Source of the DNA: Escherichia coli
GTDB lineage: Bacteria > Pseudomonadota > Gammaproteobacteria > Enterobacterales > Enterobacteriaceae
Direction: 5' to 3' (one strand)
Assembly (NCBI RefSeq): GCF_003018255.1
Contig: NZ_CP027440.1
DNA length: 64,000 nucleotides
Shown here piece by piece: positions 3,651 through 25,646 of the stretch (position 1 is the stretch's first letter; each line of letters starts with the position of its first letter). A program made the translations under genes and the position numbers. Under the pieces are notes generated by a model that worked only from the letters and a program-made list of their open reading frames with translations, was not told the DNA's origin and did no database searches.

Positions 3651-4649
3651 TTATTTCTTGCTGAATTCAGCCAGGTTGTCTTTATCTACGCCAACATAAG
3701 GTACGCGGACCACTTTGTTGTCGATTTTCCAGTTGGTGCCATCAGCCGCACCTTTGCCATCGGCCAGGTTTTTCGCCAGATCAAAGGTCGCTTTCGCCTG
3801 GTTGTTAGCATCGTTCAGTACGGTGCCCGCCAGTGCACCGGATTTCACCAGCGCCAGCGCTTCTGGCAGCGCATCGACGCCAAACACCGGAATGCTGGAC
3901 TTGTTGTGTGCTTTCAGTGCTTCTACCGCGCCCATTGCCATCGCATCGTTGTTGGCGATAACCACTTCGATTTTGTTGGCGTTCGGGCCAGACAGCCAGG
4001 CGTCCATCTTATCTTTCGCCTGAGCGGTATCCCACATAGCGGTATCTAACTGTAACTGTTCAGTTTTGATGCCTTTGTCGTTCAATTCTTTAATCACGTA
4101 AGTGGTACGTGCTTCTGCATCCGGATGGCCCGGCTCACCTTTCAGCAGTACGAACTGAATCTGACCGTCTTTGTTCAGATCCCAACCCTGATTCGCCGCC
4201 CAGTGTTTAGCAATCAAATCGCCCTGAATAATGCCGGACTCTTTGGAGTCAGTGCCAACGTAGTAGGCTTTGTCGTAGCTATCCAGCGCCTTACGAGACG
4301 GTTCTTTGTTGAAGAAAACCACCGGCACGTTTTGCCCACGCGCTTTCTCAATCACCGTACCCGCAGCTGCCGGGTCAACCAGGTTGATTGCCAGTGCCTT
4401 CACCCCTTTCGCCAGCAATACGTCGATCTGATCGTTCTGCTTGGACTGGTCATTCTGAGAATCATTCATCAGCAGCTGAACATCTGGCGCGGCTTTCGCA
4501 TCTTGCTCAATAGCCTTGCGCACCACAGACATAAAGTTATCGTCGTACTTATAGATTGTTACACCAATGCGAGTATCAGCAGCGTGTGCAGCGGCACCGA
4601 ATAACATGCTGGCCATCACAGCAGACAGGGTTAACACCTTCTTATTCAT
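3651..4649 (-). CDS. mglB: Periplasmic D-galactose/D-glucose-binding protein
   Basis: 332 aa with N-terminal signal peptide ([23 protein letters not shown]). Confidence 0.95.
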
Positions 4650-15988: not shown

Positions 15989-17077
15989 ATGAACGACAGG
16001 GAAAAGCAGATTCTTAAAATTTTACGGCGTAACCCGCTGATTCAACAGAACGAAATTGCGGATATGCTGCAAATCAGCCGTTCGCGCGTTGCGGCGCATA
16101 TTATGGATTTAATGCGCAAAGGCCGGATTAAAGGCAAAGGTTACATTCTCACCGAGCAGGAATACTGCGTAGTGGTGGGGACAATCAATATGGATATTCG
16201 CGGGATGGCGGATATCCGTTACCCGCAAGCGGCTTCTCATCCCGGTACCATTCATTGCTCGGCAGGCGGCGTTGGACGCAATATCGCCCACAATCTGGCG
16301 CTGTTAGGCCGCGACGTCCATTTGCTTTCAGTGATTGGCGATGACTTTTATGGCGAAATGCTCCTGGAAGAAACGCGCCGCGCCGGCGTGAATGTCTCCG
16401 GCTGCGTTCGTTTACATGGCCAAAGCACATCGACGTATCTGGCAATTGCCAATCGAGACGATCAAACCGTGCTGGCGATTAACGATACCCATCTGCTGGA
16501 TCAGTTGACACCGCAACTACTGAACGGGTCGCGCGATTTACTTCGTCATGCGGGCGTGGTACTTGCTGATTGTAACCTGACAGCCGAGGCGCTGGAATGG
16601 GTCTTTACCCTCGCTGATGAAATCCCGGTGTTTGTCGATACCGTTTCAGAATTCAAAGCGGGCAAAATCAAACACTGGCTGGCGCATATTCACACCCTGA
16701 AACCCACTTTACCGGAGCTGGAAATTTTATGGGGACAGGCGATCACCAGCGATGCTGACCGTAATGCCGCAGTGAATGCGTTGCATCAGCAAGGCGTTCA
16801 GCAACTGTTTGTTTATTTGCCCGATGAGTCAGTTTATTGCAGCGAAAAGGATGGAGAGCAATTTTTGCTGACAGCGCCAGCGCATACGACAGTAGACAGT
16901 TTTGGTGCTGACGATGGTTTTATGGCGGGCCTGGTATATAGCTTTCTGGAGGGAAACAATTTCCGTGACAGCGCCCGTTTTGCGATGGCCTGCGCGGCAA
17001 TTTCACGCGCCAGCGGCAGCTTAAACAACCCTACCCTGTCTGCCGATAACGCGCTTTCATTAGTGCCGATGGTGTAA
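15989..17077 (+). CDS. yeiI: Putative PfkB-family carbohydrate/nucleoside kinase with N-terminal HTH domain
   Basis: 362 aa. N-terminal winged-helix-like segment followed by a PfkB kinase core (GGVGRNIAHNLALLG) paralogous to PsuK. Starts 3 nt after the nfo stop. Confidence 0.85.
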   Translation: MNDREKQILKILRRNPLIQQNEIADMLQISRSRVAAHIMDLMRKGRIKGKGYILTEQEYCVVVGTINMDIRGMADIRYPQAASHPGTIHCSAGGVGRNIAHNLALLGRDVHLLSVIGDDFYGEMLLEETRRAGVNVSGCVRLHGQSTSTYLAIANRDDQTVLAINDTHLLDQLTPQLLNGSRDLLRHAGVVLADCNLTAEALEWVFTLADEIPVFVDTVSEFKAGKIKHWLAHIHTLKPTLPELEILWGQAITSDADRNAAVNALHQQGVQQLFVYLPDESVYCSEKDGEQFLLTAPAHTTVDSFGADDGFMAGLVYSFLEGNNFRDSARFAMACAAISRASGSLNNPTLSADNALSLVPMV

Positions 17078-17084
17078 CAATGTT

Positions 17085-17118
17085 GCCGGATTCGACGCTT
17101 GACTACATCTTATCCGGC
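17085..17118. repeat. REP-like palindrome (GCCGGA ... ATCCGGC) immediately 3' of nupX
   Basis: Inverted GCCGGAT cores between convergent yeiI and nupX. Confidence 0.5.
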
Positions 17119-17132
17119 TCATAACTCGCGCA

Positions 17133-18383
17133 CTACGCTAAGCCAATAAAGAATCCTGCAATGGTTGCACTCATCAGGTTAGAAAGTGTCGCCGCCGCCA
17201 GCGCGCGTAAACCAAGCTGGGCGATTTCCGGTGCACGGTGTGGCGCAACCGCAGAAAACGCCCCCACCACCACCCCGATAGAACCAAAGTTAGCGAAACC
17301 GCACAACGCGAAGGAAATAATCGCCACGGTTTTAGCATCCAGAGTGCCAGCCGTTTGCAGATAGGGTGAGAAATTGAGGTAAGCGACAAATTCATTTATT
17401 GCCAGTTTCTGTCCAATCAAACTCCCGGCAAGATTCGCATCACTCCAGTCAACACCCATTACCCACGCCAGTGGGGCCAGCAGGTAACCTAAAATGGACT
17501 CCAGCGAGGCATGTTCAAAGCCAAACCAGCCGCCAACGCCGCCGATAATACCGTTAATTAACGCAATGATGGCGACAAATGCCATCACTACTGTCGCCAC
17601 ACCTGCGGCGATTTTCAGCCCGGTCATTGCCCCTGTCGCAGCGGCTTCAATAATGCTTTTTGGCGGTGTTTCGGTGAAAGAGAGGTTATTAAAGGAAACC
17701 TGCGAAGATTCTGTTGCCGGGCTTAACAGGCGGGCAAACAAGATCCCGCCGGGGATCGCCATTAACGATGCCGCCAGCAGATATTCCACAGGCACGCCCA
17801 GTGCGGCGTAACCAATCATTGTCGAACCAGCAATCGAGGCCATCCCGCTACAAATCGCTGTAAATAATTCATTGCGATTCAGACGATTGATAAAGGGTTT
17901 GACGATTGCCGGAATTTCGTTTTGCCCGAGGAAAATGGTAGTGACCGCGACGAATGACTCGATCTTGCTGATATTCAATGCTTTCTGGAAGATACCGCCG
18001 AGAATGCGAATTAAGATCCCCATCACACCGATGTAGTAGAGAATACTCACCAGTGCTGTAACGAAGATAATTGCCGGTAATACCCTGAAACCAAAGATAA
18101 ATCCTGCGCCATCAAATAAGGTATCCATTTTTGGTCCGACCAGAGAACCAAAGATAAATGCGCTACCTGCATCGCTGTACGCCATCACTTTATGCACGCC
18201 AAAAGCGACTTTTTCTGCGACCCAACGCCCTGGTGGTAACCAAAGCATAATGCCGCCAATCACGACCTGTAACACTAACGCCGCGCCAACGGTACGCAGG
18301 CTGATCTTCTTCTTGTTTACTGACAGCAAAAACGCAATTGCCAGCAATACCACCATTCCCAGAACACTTCTCATGACATCCAT
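17133..18383 (-). CDS. nupX: NupC-family nucleoside permease
   Basis: 416 aa, paralog of PsuT in this window. Confidence 0.9.
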   Translation of the reverse strand: MDVMRSVLGMVVLLAIAFLLSVNKKKISLRTVGAALVLQVVIGGIMLWLPPGRWVAEKVAFGVHKVMAYSDAGSAFIFGSLVGPKMDTLFDGAGFIFGFRVLPAIIFVTALVSILYYIGVMGILIRILGGIFQKALNISKIESFVAVTTIFLGQNEIPAIVKPFINRLNRNELFTAICSGMASIAGSTMIGYAALGVPVEYLLAASLMAIPGGILFARLLSPATESSQVSFNNLSFTETPPKSIIEAAATGAMTGLKIAAGVATVVMAFVAIIALINGIIGGVGGWFGFEHASLESILGYLLAPLAWVMGVDWSDANLAGSLIGQKLAINEFVAYLNFSPYLQTAGTLDAKTVAIISFALCGFANFGSIGVVVGAFSAVAPHRAPEIAQLGLRALAAATLSNLMSATIAGFFIGLA

Positions 18384-18408
18384 AGTTATTATCTCTTCAT
18401 GTCATTTT

Positions 18409-18436
18409 GGGCGACGGCTTTCTGCCCATCAGAAAT
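18409..18436 (-). other. Conserved 28-nt leader motif, copy 1 (GGGCGACGGCTTTCTGCCCATCAGAAAT; contains TTTCTG-N5-CAGAAA)
   Basis: Near-identical sequence recurs upstream of psuT at 21637-21664. Confidence 0.4.
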
Positions 18437-18482
18437 AGCCGGGCCTGCATCTTGCGATACTGTCCCGGCTTGTTATCAACAC

Positions 18483-19424
18483 TTAATGGGTTTTGATGTA
18501 GCCGCGCACGCACTCTTCGACTAATCCCCAGAACCAGTCGGTATCAATAGTGATGCCGACTTTGGTATTGGCGGGCTTGCCAAGAACGCCCAGCTCGTCG
18601 CAGACCGTACGCCCGTAGCAAGGGCCGCTGTTAACGTCCACTTCGACGTACATCTCCTGGGTTTTAATGCCATCAGGGTTAATCAGATAACCGATGCAGG
18701 TGGCGTCATGCACCGGGCCGCCAGCCAGGCCGTAGTTTTCGAACTGCGTTTTTAGAGTGAAATTCATGATGTCGCTGAACAGCTCTCCGGCGGGGCCGCC
18801 TACCCTTTCCATCCGAGCAATCACGTCCGGGGTGCAAACAGTCTGGTTGGTGAGATCGAGGCCCATCATCACCAACGGAACGCCGGAGGTGAACACCACG
18901 CGTGCGGCTTCCGGGTCAGCAAAGATGTTGAACTCGGCAGATGGGGTGAAGTTGCCAGTACCGTAAGCGCCGCCCATCAGCACAATTTCACGGATTTTCG
19001 GCAGGATCGCGGGTTGCATACGCATTGCCACCGCGATATTTGAAAGTGGGCCAACCGGCACCAGAGTGATATCGCCATCGCTTGCCATCAGGGTATCGAT
19101 GATATATTTCACCGCATGAGTGCTTTCTGCCTGGCGGGTCAGCGGCTCGAATACCGGGCCATCCAGTCCGGTTTCACCGTGAATATTATCGGCAACGATT
19201 TGTTGACGCATAATGGGCTGTGGCATCCCCGCATAAACCGGAACATTAATCTCCAGTTTCTGGCAAACATTCAGGCCATTAATTAATGTTTTATCAAGCG
19301 TCTGATTACCCGCCACAATGGTGATACCTAATAAATCTATTGCCGGATGTTTCGCTGCCATCATTATGGCAATAGCATCATCATGACCCGGATCACAATC
19401 CAGAATAATTTTTCTCTTTTCCAT
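18483..19424 (-). CDS. rihB: Pyrimidine-specific ribonucleoside hydrolase
   Basis: 313 aa, N-terminal DxDxxxDD nucleoside hydrolase motif ([13 protein letters not shown]). Confidence 0.93.
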
Positions 19425-19592
19425 TGTTTATTTCCTCTGTTTCCAGTTGCGTTATTTTTTCTACAGCAAAGAAAATTCGACCGGGCCGATGATTGAATCT
19501 TAACAACAGCGTAAGTATGCTAAATATGAGAAATCTCATAGCGGATAAACATCGTGAAAGAAATCCACAATAATGACCTTAAGCAGCAATTG

Positions 19593-20252
19593 ATGAGTGA
19601 ATCTGCGTTTAAGGATTGCTTTTCAACGGATGTTTCAGCCGATACGCGGCTGTTTCATTTTTTAGCGCGTGACTACATTGTGCAGGAAGGGCAACAGCCG
19701 TCATGGCTGTTTTATCTGACGCGAGGCCGTGCCAGGCTTTACGCCACGCTTGCTAATGGTCGCGTGTCGCTGATCGATTTCTTTGCCGCTCCCTGTTTTA
19801 TTGGCGAGATTGAGTTAATCGACAAAGACCATGAACCGCGTGCGGTGCAGGCTATTGAAGAGTGTTGGTGCCTTGCGCTCCCTATGAAACATTACCGCCC
19901 GCTGTTATTAAACGACACGCTATTTTTACGAAAACTCTGCGTCACCTTAAGTCATAAAAATTATCGTAATATTGTTTCTTTAACTCAGAATCAATCATTT
20001 CCGTTAGTGAATCGCCTGGCAGCTTTTATATTACTCTCGCAGGAAGGTGATCTTTATCACGAAAAGCATACGCAAGCGGCAGAGTATTTAGGTGTTTCTT
20101 ATCGACATCTTTTATATGTTCTCGCGCAATTCATTCACGACGGTTTATTAATTAAAAGCAAGAAAGGGTATCTCATTAAAAACAGAAAGCAGTTGTCAGG
20201 ACTGGCACTGGAGATGGACCCGGAAAATAAATTCTCAGGGATGATGCAGTAA
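19593..20252 (+). CDS. yeiL: CRP/FNR-family transcriptional regulator
   Basis: Start trimmed to the ATG giving 219 aa (MSESAF...). cNMP-binding-like fold plus C-terminal HTH. Confidence 0.85.
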
Positions 20253-20275
20253 AAATTATTTGCAATAGAGCGATT

Positions 20276-20311
20276 GCCGGATGTGACGCTTAATAAGCGC
20301 GTACATCCGGC
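20276..20311. repeat. REP-like palindrome (GCCGGATGT ... ACATCCGGC) immediately 3' of psuT
   Basis: 9-bp inverted arms between convergent yeiL and psuT. Confidence 0.55.
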
Positions 20312-20319
20312 AATGACAC

Positions 20320-21570
20320 TCAAGCTAAACCAATAAAGAACCCGGCAATGGTCGCGCTCATCAGGTTGGAAAGCGTTGCTGCTGCCAGCGCCCGTAAACC
20401 AAGCTGGGCGATTTCCGGTGCGCGTTTTGGCGAAATAGCCGAAAATGCCCCAACGACAACACCGATAGAACCAAAGTTAGCAAAACCACAAAGCGCAAAG
20501 GAGATAATCGCAATGGTTTTCACTTCCAGCGTGCCGCCCGTTTGCAGGTATGGGGAGAAACTCAGGTAAGCGACGAATTCGTTAATCGCCAGTTTCTGCC
20601 CAATCAGGCTACCCGCAAGATTGGCATCACTCCAGTCCACACCCATGATCCACGCCAGCGGTGCCAGCACATAGCCAAAAATACTTTCCAGAGAGGCATT
20701 GGCGAAACCAAACCAGCCGCCAATTCCGCCGATAATGCCGTTGATCAGCGCAATAATTGCGACAAACGCCATTACAACCGTCGCCACACCAGCGGCGATT
20801 TTCAGCCCGGTCATCGCACCGCTCGCCGCCGCTTCGATAAAGCTTTTTGGCGGCGTTTCGCTGAACGACAGATTTTCAAATGTCACCTGCGAAGGCTCGG
20901 TGGCTGGGCTAAGAATACGTGCAAACAAAATACCACCAGGGATCGCCATCAGCGATGCCGCTAACAGGTAGTCAATTGGTACGCCCATTCCGGCATAACC
21001 AATCATCATCGAACCAGCAATGGACGCCATCCCGCTACAAATTGCGGTAAACAACTCGTTGCGATTCATGCGATCGATAAACGGTTTAACGATCGCCGGG
21101 ATCTCATTTTGCCCGAGGAAAATAGTGGTAACCGCAACAAAAGATTCGATTTTGCTGATGTTGAGGGCTTTCTGGAAAATGCTGCCAAGGATGCGAATCA
21201 GCAGCCCCATCACGCCAATGTAGTACAGCAGACTGATGAGCGCAGTGACGAAGATAATCGCCGGAAGTACGCGAAAGGCGAAGATAAAACCCGCACCGTC
21301 AAAGAGGACATCCATTTTCGGCCCGACCAGCGAACCAAAAATGAAGGCGCTACCGGCATCACTGTAAGACATCACTTTATGAACGCCTAATGCCGCCTGT
21401 TCTACCGCCCATTTTCCTGGTGGAAAATAGAGCATGATTCCGCCAATGGCGATTTGTAGCAGCAACGCGGCTCCAACCGTGCGCAAACTGATGCTCTTTT
21501 TATTCACTGACAACAGAAATGCTATTGCCAGTAACACCACCATCCCCACAACACTTCTCATTATATCCAT
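20320..21570 (-). CDS. psuT: NupC-family transporter, putative pseudouridine permease
   Basis: 416 aa, full-length paralog of NupX, last gene of psuK-psuG-psuT. Confidence 0.9.
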   Translation of the reverse strand: MDIMRSVVGMVVLLAIAFLLSVNKKSISLRTVGAALLLQIAIGGIMLYFPPGKWAVEQAALGVHKVMSYSDAGSAFIFGSLVGPKMDVLFDGAGFIFAFRVLPAIIFVTALISLLYYIGVMGLLIRILGSIFQKALNISKIESFVAVTTIFLGQNEIPAIVKPFIDRMNRNELFTAICSGMASIAGSMMIGYAGMGVPIDYLLAASLMAIPGGILFARILSPATEPSQVTFENLSFSETPPKSFIEAAASGAMTGLKIAAGVATVVMAFVAIIALINGIIGGIGGWFGFANASLESIFGYVLAPLAWIMGVDWSDANLAGSLIGQKLAINEFVAYLSFSPYLQTGGTLEVKTIAIISFALCGFANFGSIGVVVGAFSAISPKRAPEIAQLGLRALAAATLSNLMSATIAGFFIGLA

Positions 21571-21636
21571 ATTGATTTTCCCTTCATGCCAGTAAACCCG
21601 GCGTCAGCGCCAGGTTTTGGTATGCTTGATGAGTAC

Positions 21637-21664
21637 GGGCGACGGCTTTCTGCCCGTCAGAAAT
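21637..21664 (-). other. Conserved 28-nt leader motif, copy 2 (GGGCGACGGCTTTCTGCCCGTCAGAAAT)
   Basis: Abuts the psuG stop codon and lies upstream of psuT. One mismatch to copy 1. Confidence 0.4.
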
Positions 21665-22602
21665 TAACCCGCGAGACGCTGGTATTCTTTGGCTATTTCA
21701 CTCGCCAGGATGGCGTTGTTGAACACCAGCTGGATGTTGGATTTCAGGCTGTCACCGCCGGTCAACTCAGCAACGCGCGCCAGCAGGAATGGCGTACTTT
21801 CTTTACCAATAACACCCTGCGCTTCAGCTTCAGCTACCGCCTGATCGATCGCCGCATTGATAGTGTGTTCCGGCATAGCAAACTGTTCCGGAATCGGGTT
21901 CGCTACCACGAGGCCACCGTTCAGCCCGCTTTGCCATTTCACCGCCATTGCACGGGCAATTTCGCTGGCGCTGTCGAGACGAATGCTCACGTCAAACGGG
22001 CTGGTGCGGCAGAAAAACGCAGGCAGCGCTTTGGTCTGATAGCCAATTAGCGGTACACCGAAAGTTTCTAAATATTCGGTAGTTAAGCCTAAATCGAGAA
22101 TAGATTTCGCCCCGGCACAAACGACGGTGACATTGGTGTGCGCCAGTTCTTGCAAATCGGCAGAAATATCGAAGGTATGTTCCGCCCCGCGATGCACACC
22201 ACCAATTCCCCCGGTGGCAAATACTTTAATTCCGGCAAGCGCCGCAATAATCATCGTTGAAGCAACGGTGGTTGCACCATTTTTTCCGGCGGCAACAACA
22301 AAAGGTAAATCGCGACGACTAACTTTGGTCACGTTATGCCCTTCACGACCCAGCAATTCAATTTCTTCTTTGCTTAAACCCACTTTCATCACGCCGCCAA
22401 TAATGGCGATAGTGGCAGGTACAGCGCCCTGTTTACGAATAGTTTCTTCAACTTCAATTGCGGTCTGGGCATTTTGTGGGAACGGCATCCCGTGAGAAAT
22501 AATGGTCGATTCCAGCGCCACAACCGGTTTTTTGTTTTTTAAAGCGTCCTGCACTTCCGGGGAAATTTGTAATAATTCAGGGGAAATTTTTAATTCAGAC
22601 AT
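21664..22602 (-). CDS. psuG: Pseudouridine-5'-phosphate glycosidase
   Basis: 312 aa, matches YeiN/PsuG. Confidence 0.92.
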   Translation of the reverse strand: MSELKISPELLQISPEVQDALKNKKPVVALESTIISHGMPFPQNAQTAIEVEETIRKQGAVPATIAIIGGVMKVGLSKEEIELLGREGHNVTKVSRRDLPFVVAAGKNGATTVASTMIIAALAGIKVFATGGIGGVHRGAEHTFDISADLQELAHTNVTVVCAGAKSILDLGLTTEYLETFGVPLIGYQTKALPAFFCRTSPFDVSIRLDSASEIARAMAVKWQSGLNGGLVVANPIPEQFAMPEHTINAAIDQAVAEAEAQGVIGKESTPFLLARVAELTGGDSLKSNIQLVFNNAILASEIAKEYQRLAG

Positions 22603-23531
22603 TCTGCGTTCTCCACTAACGATATAACGTTGGCAATCGATAAATCGGGGTTATTGGTGTATTCACAGGAGAGCGCCATTGACGAACATCCCTGTGCGAA
22701 ACGAACAGATTCGGCAAACGGCATTCCGTCTACCCAACACGAAGCAAGTCCCGCCATCATGGCATCGCCCGCTCCGGTAACATTAATGACATTGGTTTTG
22801 ATCGGCGCAGACCAACCACTTTCACCGCTGATATCACTGTAATAAACGCCGTCGCCGCCCATGCTCAATACCAGTCGGTTCAGGCCATGTTGATGGAACC
22901 AGGCAGCAACTTTTGCCACATCTTCACGCCCTGACAAAGCAATCCCACTCAGGGTTTCCGCTTCAAGGCGGTTTGGCTTGAGAGTGTGGATTTGATTTAG
23001 ACGGTCGCGCACTTTGACACATTTCCACGCGGAAACAGGATCGACAAATACGGGTACGTTGGCGGCATTATCCAGAATCCATGCCAGTGCCTCTTCACTG
23101 ATATTACAGTCCGCGACAATGACCTTTGCCCTCTGAATAAATTCACCGTGCTGTGCGAGATATTCAGCTGTAATAGCGTTGCTAATATTCATGTCATTTA
23201 TAGCAACCAGCATTTCACCGGTATTATCGAGTAATGATAAATAGCTCGACGTATTTTCTCCCGGCACAATCAGGCATTTATCGACATAAACACCAGATTG
23301 ATTGGTTTGCGTTAGCAGCGATTGACCATAAAAATCACTGCCTACGGCGCTCAGTAGCCAGGCTTTATTCCCCAGCAACGCCAGGTTTTGTGCAATATTG
23401 CGCCCTACTCCACCAGGCGTAAACTTTATTTTACCTGGATTTGAATCCGCATAATTTAATGATTCATGTGAATATCCGGCGACATCAATATTCGCCGAAC
23501 CTATAATTACGACATAATCCTTTTCGCGCAT
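22590..23531 (-). CDS. psuK: Pseudouridine kinase (PfkB family)
   Basis: 313 aa, PfkB motifs GGVGRNIAQNLALLG and GAGDAMMAG. Overlaps psuG by 13 nt. Confidence 0.92.
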   Translation of the reverse strand: MREKDYVVIIGSANIDVAGYSHESLNYADSNPGKIKFTPGGVGRNIAQNLALLGNKAWLLSAVGSDFYGQSLLTQTNQSGVYVDKCLIVPGENTSSYLSLLDNTGEMLVAINDMNISNAITAEYLAQHGEFIQRAKVIVADCNISEEALAWILDNAANVPVFVDPVSAWKCVKVRDRLNQIHTLKPNRLEAETLSGIALSGREDVAKVAAWFHQHGLNRLVLSMGGDGVYYSDISGESGWSAPIKTNVINVTGAGDAMMAGLASCWVDGMPFAESVRFAQGCSSMALSCEYTNNPDLSIANVISLVENAECLN

Positions 23532-23598
23532 AGCACGTCCTCTGGTAAAAAATTACCAACCCTGTCAATCCACAAGAATATAGATACTGCAAAGACGG

Positions 23599-23634
23599 TT
23601 TAAACATGTGTTCATATTTAAACATGTGCTCATA
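23599..23634. repeat. Perfect tandem 18-bp direct repeat (TTTAAACATGTG[T/C]TCATA x2) upstream of psuK
   Basis: Two adjacent units differing at one position, 68-103 bp upstream of the psuK ATG. A partial third copy follows. Confidence 0.6.
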
Positions 23635-23771
23635 GTATGCATGTTTTACGTAAAGTAAATTACCGCCAGAGATGCAAAATGGGCAGATTTGAGCAGGCTC
23701 ACAAAACGCGATTAAATGCCTGAATTATAAAAACGGGGAATTTGTGACGGAATGCACAGAACAGGAACACT

Positions 23772-23797
23772 AAAAAAGGGCAGAAATTAATCTGCCC
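23772..23797 (-). terminator. Rho-independent terminator (GGGCAGA-ttaatt-TCTGCCC plus U-run on minus strand) distal to fruA
   Basis: Stem-loop followed by six U on the minus-strand transcript. Confidence 0.6.
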
Positions 23798-23913
23798 TTG
23801 AGGAAATAACCTTAGTGTTTGATGAAAGTTTCAGGTTTCCACTAAAAGATAAAACCATTTAAATTCATAAAATTACATTCACAAACCGGTCATTCTCTTT
23901 GCGCGCATCAAAT

Positions 23914-23944
23914 GTTCCAGGGCAGGAAATTTCTGCCCTGGAAC
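23914..23944 (-). terminator. 12-bp perfect stem-loop immediately 3' of fruA (GTTCCAGGGCAG ... CTGCCCTGGAAC)
   Basis: Near-perfect 31-nt palindrome 11 nt past the fruA stop. U-tract is weak. Confidence 0.45.
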
Positions 23945-23954
23945 ACACCTTTTA

Positions 23955-25646
23955 TTACGCTGCTTTTGCTACTGCGTCCACTTCCGGACGTTTCAGGAAG
24001 GCATAGGCCAGACCCGCCACCAGCGTACCGGCAATAATGGCTACCAGGTAACCCAGTACCGGCGTAATAGCGCCAGGGATCAGCAGAACAAACAGACCAC
24101 CGTGCGGTGCCATCAGTTTCGCACCAATCGCCATTGAGATTGCGCCAGTCAGCGCCCCACCAACGATACAACACGGCAGCACACGCATCGGATCACGAGC
24201 AGCAAACGGAATTGCACCTTCCGAAATAAAGCACAGACCAAGAACCAGAGCGGCTTTGCCACCTTCCTGCTGCGCTTTGTCGAATTTGCGACGCGCCACC
24301 ATTGTTGCCAGACCCATTGCCAGCGGTGGCACCATACCTGCCGCCATAATCGCCGCCATCGGGCCATAGGTTTGAGTACTCAGCAGACCCACACCGAATG
24401 CGTACGCTGCTTTATTTACCGGACCGCCCATGTCAGTACACATCATGCCACCGAGGATCGCCCCCAGCAGAACCGCATTCGCAGTCCCCATGGTCTGCAG
24501 CCAGTGAGTCAACCCTTCGAGAATGCCAGCAACCGGTTTACCGATCAGGTAGATCATCGCCAGACCGACCACCAGACTGGAAATTAGCGGAATGATCAGG
24601 ATCGGTTTCAGCGCCTCCATACTCTGTGGCAGTTTCAGTTGCGTACTGATTAACTTCGCAATGTAACCAGCCAGGAAGCCCGCAATAATACCCCCAATGA
24701 AGCCAGAACCGGTGCTGACCGCCAGCATACCCCCAATCAGACCCGGCGTGAGACCCGGACGATCGGCAATGGAGAAGGCAATGTAACCTGCCAGTACCGG
24801 CACCATCAGCGCAAAGGCTGAACCACCACCAATCTGCATCAGCGCCGCTGCCAACGTACCCGGCTCTTTAAACGCTTCGATACCAAAAGCAAAAGAAAGC
24901 GCGATACACAGACCACCTGCAACGACCATCGGCAGCATGTAAGAGACGCCCGTCAGCAAGTGACGGTAAGCGCCTGCACCCTCTTTCTTACCTTCAGTGG
25001 TCGCTGTTTGAGCTTTGCCCGCCGGTTCATACGGCGTTGCTTCAGCAACCGCTTTATCCAGTTCCTGCGCGGTTTTCTTCAGCGCCAGACCGGTAGAGGT
25101 GCGATACATCGGTTTACCAGCAAATTTCGCCAGATCCACTTCGATATCTGCCGCCACAATCACCAGATCCGCTGCGGCTACTTCTTCAGGGGTGATCGCA
25201 TTACCCGCGCCAACAGAACCACGGGTTTCAACTTTCACCCACCAGCCACGTTTTTTCGCTTCGGTTTCAATGGCTTCAGCCGCCATAAATGTGTGTGCTA
25301 CGCCAGTCGGGCAAGCTGTCACCGCAACTACGCGTTTCGGACCGCTGGTGGCAACTGGTGCTGTCGCAGCGACCGGTGCAGTGTAAGGTTTCGCATGGCC
25401 TTTGGCTTCACTCAGGAACAGCTCAGGGTGCGCAACTGCCCGGGAAATATCGCCCAGCCAGACATTTTTACCGTTCAGCGCGCTGTCGTTCGGGATGGAA
25501 TCACCGAGAACAATCGCCATTTCAGCGTCGTTCGGATTGTCGATGATTTCCAGTTTTGCTTTTCGCGCCGCCGCGCCCAGCAGGGTCTTCGCCATATAGG
25601 CGCGTGCCTGACCGAGATTAGCGTCAATAATCAGCAGCGTTTTCAT
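23955..25646 (-). CDS. fruA: Fructose PTS enzyme IIB'BC
   Basis: 563 aa, matches E. coli FruA. Confidence 0.95.
   Translation of the reverse strand: MKTLLIIDANLGQARAYMAKTLLGAAARKAKLEIIDNPNDAEMAIVLGDSIPNDSALNGKNVWLGDISRAVAHPELFLSEAKGHAKPYTAPVAATAPVATSGPKRVVAVTACPTGVAHTFMAAEAIETEAKKRGWWVKVETRGSVGAGNAITPEEVAAADLVIVAADIEVDLAKFAGKPMYRTSTGLALKKTAQELDKAVAEATPYEPAGKAQTATTEGKKEGAGAYRHLLTGVSYMLPMVVAGGLCIALSFAFGIEAFKEPGTLAAALMQIGGGSAFALMVPVLAGYIAFSIADRPGLTPGLIGGMLAVSTGSGFIGGIIAGFLAGYIAKLISTQLKLPQSMEALKPILIIPLISSLVVGLAMIYLIGKPVAGILEGLTHWLQTMGTANAVLLGAILGGMMCTDMGGPVNKAAYAFGVGLLSTQTYGPMAAIMAAGMVPPLAMGLATMVARRKFDKAQQEGGKAALVLGLCFISEGAIPFAARDPMRVLPCCIVGGALTGAISMAIGAKLMAPHGGLFVLLIPGAITPVLGYLVAIIAGTLVAGLAYAFLKRPEVDAVAKAA

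Follow-up and report, generated by a model that had tools for sequence, protein, structure and literature searches.

In Escherichia coli, the nucleoside transporter gene psuT and its paralogue nupX are each preceded by a short hairpin. On comparative evidence, this is a sense-strand RNA structure that selection has maintained, with a loop constrained in sequence, and it has been inherited together with the transporter cistron. Judged from the aligned leaders, it is a member of a set of conserved cis-acting mRNA leader hairpins in which pairing is kept by compensatory and wobble changes. That it acts in cis to control the transporter cistron, as an RNA element recognised sequence-specifically and by a mechanism that we infer from sequence, we consider slightly better than an even bet.

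Two near-identical copies of the motif in the psu-nup region

The window analysed here is a stretch of 64,000 nucleotides from E. coli, and its features are collected in Table 1. The RefSeq annotation of an identical strain gives the gene order fruBKA, psuK, psuG, psuT, yeiL, rihB, nupX, yeiI, nfo. Since all genes of this set except yeiL, the sole plus-strand gene, lie on the minus strand of the window, sense sequences are given as its reverse complement. The psuG-psuT junction was found in 5402 of 5426 complete E. coli genomes with 93–100% identity. The two CNT-family transporters are poorly understood. Weak transport of uridine and cytidine has been reported for NupX, while transport of xanthosine, uridine and cytidine by PsuT was undetected (PMC11241209). 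The papers on psuT and nupX found in our literature search cover transport only, with none on their regulation, and the hairpin sequence is absent from the papers searched. No paper found in that search ties psuG to a riboswitch of its own, the sole co-mention concerning plasmid-borne SMR efflux pumps.

Table 1 Genes and leader elements around psuT and nupX, with positions in the window.
Feature	Position	Strand	Basis
nupX	17133–18383	minus	RefSeq annotation of the identical E. coli region and ORF list
Stem-loop, nupX copy, UGGGC-AGAAAGCCGUC-GCCCA	18408–18428	minus	Covariance model, 45.5 bits
Hairpin AGCCGGG...CCCGGCU between the rihB stop and the nupX motif	18437–18470	minus	Minimum-free-energy fold
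rihB	18483–19424	minus	RefSeq annotation of the identical E. coli region
yeiL	19554–20252	plus	RefSeq annotation of the identical E. coli region
psuT, NupC/CNT-family nucleoside transporter; cistron preceded by the hairpin	20320–21570	minus	ORF list and RefSeq
psuT translation initiation region, with Shine-Dalgarno GAAGGGA at 21579–21585	21558–21585	minus	Sequence
Second hairpin AAACCUGGCG-CUGA-CGCCGGGUUU	21594–21617	minus	Minimum-free-energy fold, RNAalifold
C/A-rich linker ACUCAUCAAGCAUACCAAAA, consensus AUAUCARNNAUACCRAAA	21615–21634	minus	Leader alignments
Stem-loop, psuT copy, ACGGGC-AGAAAGCCGUC-GCCCGU, 6-bp stem and 11-nt loop	21635–21657	minus	Covariance model, 47.2 bits
Upstream flank AUUUCUG, inside the 28-mer	21658–21664	minus	Identical in both E. 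coli copies
psuG	21664–22602	minus	RefSeq annotation of the identical E. coli region
psuK	22590–23531	minus	RefSeq annotation of the identical E. coli region

The exact 28-mer GGGCGACGGCTTTCTGCCCGTCAGAAAT, as written on the plus strand, occupies positions 21637–21664 between psuG and psuT; a second copy, differing by a single mismatch, lies at 18409–18436 between rihB and nupX, and the sense strand of both copies is the minus strand. None of 100 dinucleotide-preserving shuffles contained a match to the 28-mer. Coordinates and annotation agree with the first-pass annotation of this DNA, which had placed a second copy of the motif next to the psuG stop and upstream of psuT. Read on the sense strand, the 28-mer begins with the final A of the TAA that ends psuG. 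In the sense direction, the psuT side reads psuG GGU UAA UUUCUGA CGGGC AGAAAGCCGUC GCCCG UACUC, followed after 65 nt by the psuT AUG. On the nupX side, the rihB UAA is followed by 54 nt and UGGGC AGAAAGCCGUC GCCCA AAAUGAC, the hairpin ending 24 nt before the nupX AUG. The conserved unit is the stem-loop at 21635–21657 (minus strand), which extends 2 nt beyond the left edge of the 28-mer. The AUUUCUG flank could pair with CAGAAA in the loop to form an alternative hairpin A, but this flank is not kept in other genera and differs outside Escherichia and Citrobacter.

The first-pass annotation had assigned the single difference between the copies (cccGt versus cccAt on the plus strand) to a spacer. 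There is indeed one mismatch, but it falls on the outermost base of the core stem, which is C in the psuT copy and U in the nupX copy on the sense strand. Its partner, located 1 nt outside the 28-mer, is G at 21636 and A at 18408 (sense), and the two bases change together, giving C-G before psuT and U-A before nupX (columns 13 and 33 of the leader alignment).

The hairpin follows the transporter gene across genera

Homologous leaders were collected in three ways. A protein-anchored scan of species-representative genomes covered E. albertii, three Citrobacter species, Superficieibacter and more distant taxa, and exact-protein look-ups added Buttiauxella, Klebsiella michiganensis, K. spallanzanii, Kluyvera, Enterobacter hormaechei, Entomohabitans and Leclercia. 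Metagenome contigs were scanned with the start-codon-region pattern TCATTATGGANRTNATGAGAAG, which is blind to the hairpin, yielding 120 loci. The pooled set comprised 91 distinct 180-nt leaders in a psuG-transporter or rihB-transporter arrangement; four leaders were left unclassified, among them L126 and L207 with rihB upstream.

The hairpin was present in 90 of the 91 leaders without length variation and in 59 distinct versions, the sole exception being the psuT leader of Entomohabitans, where an unrelated 16-bp hairpin occupies the corresponding site. It occurs in Escherichia, Citrobacter, Klebsiella, Kluyvera, Buttiauxella, Enterobacter, Leclercia, Superficieibacter and Entomohabitans, and it is tied to the downstream transporter gene whether the upstream gene is rihB or psuG. 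As far as these leaders and the searches below indicate, the hairpin is restricted to Enterobacteriaceae. The covariance model gave no convincing match in the loci of more distant CNT homologues, where the best extra match fell inside a Vibrio ORF and was rejected. In Serratia and Hafnia, the psuT homologues (73% amino acid identity) are preceded by a leader of another kind, which contains another long hairpin and gave no covariance-model match.

A motif-centred 45-nt query matched a median of 2 places per E. coli genome, with a maximum of 3, and the motif is therefore not a REP/BIME or other dispersed repeat. Within the window, a third covariance-model match (15.6 bits) turned out to be the fruA intrinsic terminator. 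A cmscan of positions 17000–24000 against Rfam 15 (E ≤ 10) returned nothing near a gathering threshold; the best overlapping match was isrJ, with 18.9 bits against a threshold of 37 (E = 6.6). A descriptor of five pairs and the loop xGxxxGCxGUx gave 156 matches in leader context; in 1.70 Mb of sequence, 15 others fell outside it. Fourteen of these 15 outside matches were unrelated stems, and the remaining one (L206) was an E. coli nupX-type hairpin missed by the context filter.

Base pairing and loop identity are conserved on the sense strand

The consensus hairpin has a stem of 5–6 bp, YNGGC/GCCNR, and an 11-nt loop, A-G-NNN-G-C-N-G-U-C. Folded alone, the psuT copy reached −11.1 kcal/mol, and the nupX copy was present in the minimum-free-energy fold of its 128-nt leader. 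RNAalifold recovered the hairpin in both leader types without a supplied structure. Single-sequence folding was modestly better than that of shuffles (z of −2.1 and −1.0), and competing pairings exist in E. coli, namely hairpin A in nupX and pairing of the psuG-codon segment GCGGGU with GCCCGU in psuT.

Pairs were counted in an ungapped alignment of 59 distinct homologous leaders, which also served to build the covariance model. The five core pairs showed standard pairing in 292 of 295 cells (284 Watson-Crick and 8 G-U), the rest being 1 A-C and 2 other combinations. The six-pair stem, helix C (columns 12–17 with 29–34), had 92.9% standard pairs against 33–55% in slid registers, and 0 of 500 shuffles reached its pairing or covariation score, a comparison made among leaders of one family, where related sequences can beat shuffles without any structure. 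Pair 13:33 was C-G in 43 leaders, U-A in 9 and U-G in 5; pair 14:32 was G-C in 56 and A-U in 3; and pair 12:34 was A-U in 18, G-C in 13 and G-U in 6, with independent compensatory events that are few by our estimate (about 2–4 at 13:33 and perhaps one at 14:32). Stems also differ between the two loci within one genome. Before psuT, E. coli has CGGGC/GCCCG or UGGGC/GCCCG, and its nupX stem is UGGGC/GCCCA; E. hormaechei has CAGGC/GCCUG before psuT versus CGGGC/GCCCG before nupX, indicating that pairing rather than base identity is preserved. Because a G-U pair on the sense strand corresponds to A-C on the antisense strand, the excess of G-U over A-C points to the sense transcript as the paired molecule.

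The loop is constrained in sequence as well. Among 22 representatives sharing less than 80% identity, loop positions 9 and 10 (G26, U27) were invariant and positions 2, 6 and 7 (G19, G23, C24) nearly so, along with the inner stem GGC/GCC, which was invariant or nearly invariant. Positions 1 and 11 were biased towards A and C, and positions 3–5 and 8 were free. The loop therefore contains 5–7 constrained positions, distributed asymmetrically about the dyad.

Several other pairings were considered and rejected. An H-type pseudoknot combining hairpin A (UUUCUG/CAGAAA) with CGGG/CCCG appeared convincing in E. coli but found no support across genera for its helix A (columns 6–11 with 17–22), which had 55% standard pairs against 30–52% in slid registers and nearly equal covariation. 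Hairpin B (GACGG/CCGUC, columns 11–15 with 24–28) was paired in 71.5% of cells, no better than shuffles, and is broken in Citrobacter. By inspection, the loop showed no covariation that would indicate pairing with either the linker ACC(G) or the start region, and the linker is absent in E. coli nupX. An extension helix, CUGA/UCAG, was limited to some nupX leaders.

Duplication explains the two copies, constraint their persistence

NupX and PsuT are paralogues with 88% amino acid, 79% nucleotide and 53% third-codon-position identity. In the intergenic alignment their homology runs upstream through the Shine-Dalgarno region and into the motif, with an indel of about 50 nt in between. Two copies of the motif exist because the leader was duplicated along with the transporter gene, and on this alignment the unrelated upstream genes rihB and psuG are irrelevant to its origin. 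That the two upstream genes are unrelated, as the first-pass annotation had held, is borne out by their Pfam families, IU_nuc_hydro for rihB and Indigoidine_A for psuG.

Duplication raises the question of mere leftovers. At a neutral identity of 0.53 we calculated a binomial probability of about 5e-7 for at least 27 matches in 28, so something besides shared ancestry preserves the motif. In 13 genes taken from genome sequences, mean pairwise identity was 0.76 in the 21-nt hairpin, 0.48 at the fourfold-degenerate sites of the transporter genes and 0.34 in the 21 nt upstream of the hairpin. The two E. coli copies agree even at the variable loop positions and in the 8 nt upstream, a likeness peculiar to Escherichia; the corresponding pairs are 76% identical in Kluyvera and 57% in Enterobacter. 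This difference suggests local homogenisation in Escherichia atop a deep constraint, and part of the likeness between the E. coli copies probably reflects such homogenisation, for instance by short-tract gene conversion, or an extra constraint specific to Escherichia, for instance on helix A. The same likeness is what speaks for a functionless motif, a remnant of duplication or of recent gene conversion between the E. coli leaders. Against that, at least nine genera have kept the hairpin even as its flanks and the synonymous sites approach saturation, and its stem carries compensatory substitutions, which makes absence of function extremely improbable. The case in which conservation stems solely from recent duplication, named in the first-pass annotation as its refutation, is contradicted by these cross-genus data.

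Terminator, promoter and DNA-site readings

A G+C-rich hairpin (ACGGGC/GCCCGU) is one part of an intrinsic terminator, and the other, an immediate 3′ U-rich tract, is absent; the 3′ flanks are ACUCAUCA in psuT and AAAUGACA in nupX. For lack of this tract the hairpin is not an intrinsic terminator, and the terminator scan made no call, in line with the first-pass suggestion that the motif does not terminate the upstream gene. Published Term-seq tables contain zero 3′ ends in either intergenic region (PMC7815308), which says little because these genes are barely expressed in standard laboratory culture. No sigma-70 promoter was called in either intergenic region, and manual inspection turned up no −10 element carrying A in its second position. 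A sigma-54 promoter was dismissed on inspection because the GG-N10-GC spacing does not fit. A bacterial SECIS element likewise fails because the psuG stop codon is UAA (E. coli, Kluyvera, Enterobacter) rather than an in-frame UGA, and the nupX copy lies 54 nt past the rihB stop. Two small ORFs were also discarded. One running through the E. coli nupX hairpin (AUG GGC...) has ACG in psuT and is interrupted by a stop in Kluyvera, and an upstream ORF AUGAAGGGA... before psuT lacks its AUG in Klebsiella and Enterobacter.

The site is an inverted repeat, GGGC-N11-GCCC, with two potential regulators encoded in conserved neighbouring genes: YeiL belongs to the CRP/FNR family and YeiI combines an HTH with a PfkB kinase. 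It might accordingly be read as a palindromic DNA operator for such a nearby-encoded factor. This is very unlikely, for no promoter-like site lies nearby, changes in the half-sites keep base pairing and differ between the two loci of one genome, and G-U-type changes exceed A-C by 8 to 1. In the loop, columns 26–27 are invariant versus their mirror columns 19–20, which are G and variable. Covarying pairs, tolerated G-U and asymmetric loop conservation argue against a palindromic operator.

The conserved core also resembles the RfaH-recruiting ops element. In the ops consensus GGCGGTAGnnTG, RfaH recruitment requires G4, G5, A7 and G8, and pausing depends on T11/G12; in vitro, either G4C or A7T is enough to abolish recruitment, and no off-target recruitment was seen in cells (PMC5995543). 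An ops-like DNA and pause element, G-C-N-G-T-N-G-C-C-Y-R, would cause RNA polymerase to pause and bring in RfaH or a different NusG-like factor. The hairpin core GC-N-GT-N-GC matches ops GCGGTAGC at 6 of 8 positions, with columns G23, C24, G26, T27, G29 and C30 aligning with ops G2, C3, G5, T6, G8 and C9; its flanks fit a consensus pause, G23, Y32 and G33 corresponding to G-10, Y-1 and G+1 (ops data in PMC5995543). The resemblance was nevertheless spotted post hoc, and the hairpin fails at three ops positions, G4 being C, A7 being C and T11 being C in the E. coli site GCCGTCGCCCG (window AGCCGTCGCCCG). Furthermore, the RNA-type covariation of columns 12–14 with 32–34 in the flanking stem is left unexplained by a bubble of about 11 nt, and the hairpin does not head a long operon. 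We regard a site of this kind as a very remote prospect.

Leader layout and alternative RNA functions

In psuT-type leaders the hairpin begins 7–10 nt past the psuG stop (6 nt for the 6-bp form in the window), and in nupX-type leaders it lies 50–100 nt from the rihB stop. The sequence 5′ of it is A/U-rich and unpaired in every lineage. Downstream, the C/A-rich linker is kept in many psuT and nupX leaders and is deleted in the nupX leader of the window, which has lost another 12 nt compared with other E. coli strains. A second, terminator-like hairpin with only 3–4 U lies directly before the psuT Shine-Dalgarno sequence in psuT-type leaders and recurs in some nupX-type leaders; the terminator scan made no call there, and RNAalifold gave it 9 pairs, one of which occurs as U-G, C-G and U-A, all one-sided changes. 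Many nupX-type leaders have no second hairpin and lack part or all of the linker. The psuT AUG itself lies within a weak A/U hairpin, UCAAUAU-GGAU-AUAAUGA, at 21558–21575 (local RNAalifold consensus). Because the linker, the second hairpin and the hairpin upstream of the nupX motif vary, the stem-loop is the sole module common to all leaders.

The main rival to a sequence-specifically recognised element is a generic structural hairpin, acting as a barrier to mRNA decay or as an intercistronic processing boundary with no specific factor. Following endonucleolytic cleavage in the A/U-rich stretch just upstream, such a hairpin would keep 3′ exonucleases off the message of the upstream enzyme or form a 5′ stem-loop capping that of the transporter. 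The unpaired 5′ flank fits this well, as does the replacement in Entomohabitans psuT, where the different hairpin at the corresponding site is very stable. Leaders of the nupX type moreover bear a further, sequence-variable hairpin directly upstream, which in other genera differs in sequence from the AGCCGGG...CCCGGCU of the window, and intercistronic stabilisers are well known from malEFG and pap. A purely structural hairpin would nonetheless be expected to drift freely, yet its five loop positions and inner GGC/GCC are invariant or nearly so, against 48% identity at fourfold sites. On balance we find a purely structural role unlikely, if worth serious consideration.

A second alternative is a minimal riboswitch for a pyrimidine nucleoside or catabolite (pseudouridine, uridine or uracil), with the second hairpin or the initiation region as its expression platform. 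The psuT-type order of conserved hairpin, conserved linker, terminator-like hairpin and Shine-Dalgarno sequence would suit it, and a nucleoside transporter is a typical riboswitch target; it would be a new class, since Rfam gave no match. Some 10 constrained nucleotides beyond a simple stem are, however, very little for a selective pocket, and conservation is lacking for the proposed pseudoknot (UUUCUG/CAGAAA with CGGG/CCCG). Neither the linker nor the second hairpin is present in the nupX leader of E. coli or in several others of that type, and inspection revealed no alternative pairing between the two hairpins, so that a mutually exclusive expression platform was not found. A riboswitch of this kind is improbable.

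Proposed role of the hairpin

The hairpin lies in the psuT leader within the psuK-psuG-psuT unit, as the first-pass annotation had placed it, and the internal regulatory or processing role for psuT suggested there is a candidate function. We propose that the hairpin would act in cis and post-transcriptionally on the transporter cistron, uncoupling the transporter from the upstream enzyme genes. The distance from the hairpin to the AUG varies from 24 to 67 nt across leaders, which excludes direct occlusion of the ribosome-binding site, and any effect must be indirect. A trans-acting reader is most likely because the stem and specific loop bases are kept while their position relative to the ribosome-binding site floats. 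The hairpin would then be a recognition site, most likely for a protein, presenting the invariant loop bases (G, GC, GU) on a G+C clamp; from the pattern of conservation, the reader would more probably be a protein than a small ligand. The putative factor might set how the transporter message is translated, stabilised or processed; in psuT-type leaders it might instead govern read-through of the terminator-like hairpin, which lies 20 nt further downstream.

Intercistronic hairpins that give discoordinate expression within an operon include the malE-malF REP, papB-papA and glmU-glmS processing. Like these, the psuT/nupX hairpin lies between cistrons of one transcription unit, has no U-tract, and precedes a distal membrane transporter gene whose dosage probably needs control separate from that of the soluble enzymes. 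Those stabilisers are defined by stability or by dispersed repeat families, whereas here the loop is conserved and the element occurs in two copies per genome with one gene family. The boxB hairpin of lambda nut, which serves antitermination, has a 5-nt GNRA-like loop and an adjacent boxA. The present hairpin shares with boxB a short G+C stem of about 5 bp with a conserved loop and, in psuT-type leaders, a position at variable distance upstream of a terminator-like hairpin. It differs in its 11-nt loop, in the lack of any boxA-like sequence on inspection and in the absence of the terminator-like hairpin from many nupX leaders. In E. coli, the rph-pyrE intercistronic attenuator has a U-run and works as a true terminator. 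It too belongs to a pyrimidine-related operon, and psuT-type leaders likewise place the hairpin a few nucleotides past the upstream stop, so that a terminating ribosome would touch its base; unlike the attenuator, the hairpin has no U-run, and its nupX-type form stands well away from the rihB stop.

The hairpin before psuT and nupX would offer a mutable handle on transporter dosage relative to the upstream catabolic enzymes, and a starting point for finding the factor that reads the loop. It seems rather improbable that a very small riboregulator gates read-through of the terminator-like hairpin, or translation, of the transporters with this hairpin as its sensor, whether the hairpin binds a ligand itself or is bound by a nucleoside-responsive protein. 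If that were true, it would be the first RNA element responsive to pseudouridine catabolism and would represent an uncharted class of regulatory RNA in E. coli. More broadly, narrowly distributed, structure-constrained RNA elements that are absent from Rfam still persist in the best-studied bacterium.

Leader structures of psuT and nupX in E. coli and other genera

The leader between psuG and psuT takes other forms in some other genera. In Entomohabitans (L208, ~60-110), a perfect 16-bp hairpin of unrelated sequence, CAGCGCTGTTCCCGG-N8-CCGGGAAACAGCGCTG, stands in place of the conserved leader hairpin, and the C/A-rich linker on the 3' side of this substituted hairpin is retained. Four loci from Serratia, Hafnia and 'Klebsiella sp. 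BIGb0407' (L007-L010, ~3800-4000) encode psuT homologues with 73% identity behind a longer psuG-psuT spacer, in which another long hairpin, CCUGAAAGGUG...CACCUUUCAGG, is conserved. It could be a leader structure analogous but not homologous to the conserved hairpin.

E. coli strains differ from one another in the nupX leader: 12 nt of the conserved linker (TAACGGGATCAG...) are missing in the window strain but kept in another E. coli strain (L002, 7165-7201) and in other genera. In the psuT leader, CCUGGC occurs twice, in the 5' strand of hairpin 2 (the terminator-like hairpin before the Shine-Dalgarno sequence) and again directly after this hairpin, so that either copy could pair with the 3' strand GCCGGG. 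CCUGGC/GCCGGG is a possible alternative-pairing device.

Further pairing is found at both translation starts. The psuT start codon is contained in a conserved A/U-rich 7-bp hairpin, which reads UCAUUAU-GGAU-AUAAUGA in the majority of genera, and in nupX of the window the pairing of AUGACAU with AUGUCAU surrounds the Shine-Dalgarno sequence and AUG. Such pairing may limit translation initiation.

Coordinates of sequence features in the window
Feature	Position	Strand	Sequence
First hairpin after fruA	23917-23941	minus	GGGCAG...CUGCCC
Second hairpin after fruA	23772-23799	minus	GGGCAG...CUGCCC
Direct repeat, two copies	23599-23610, 23617-23628	minus	CACATGTTTAAA
CCUGGC copies	21594-21617 and on to 21586	minus	CCUGGC
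psuT start-codon hairpin	21558-21575	minus	UCAAUAU-GGAU-AUAAUGA
nupX leader	18384-18408	minus	
nupX start-region pairing	18373-18405	minus	AUGACAU/AUGUCAU
yeiI	15989-17077		

Boundaries and candidate control elements of the psu region

Both hairpins after fruA are based on the same stem. A canonical intrinsic terminator is formed by the second (AAGGGCAGAUUAAUUUCUGCCCUUUUUU), which was the sole further match within the window to the covariance model built from the conserved hairpin (15.6 bits), and this likeness is due to chance. About 70-100 nt 5' of the psuK start codon lies an exact direct repeat with a spacing of 6 nt, which looks like a candidate operator of the psu operon promoter. At the other end, a Term-seq table of E. 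coli K-12 lists a minus-strand 3' end at 2255991, annotated as antisense to yeiL (PMC7815308); this is probably the end of the psuT transcript, located within the convergent yeiL.

The product of yeiI has an HTH_24 domain at its N terminus together with a PfkB kinase that is a relative of PsuK, and in several genera (L083, L084, L208 and L209) the gene is convergent to the transporter gene. As a candidate regulator of this region, YeiI would respond to nucleosides.
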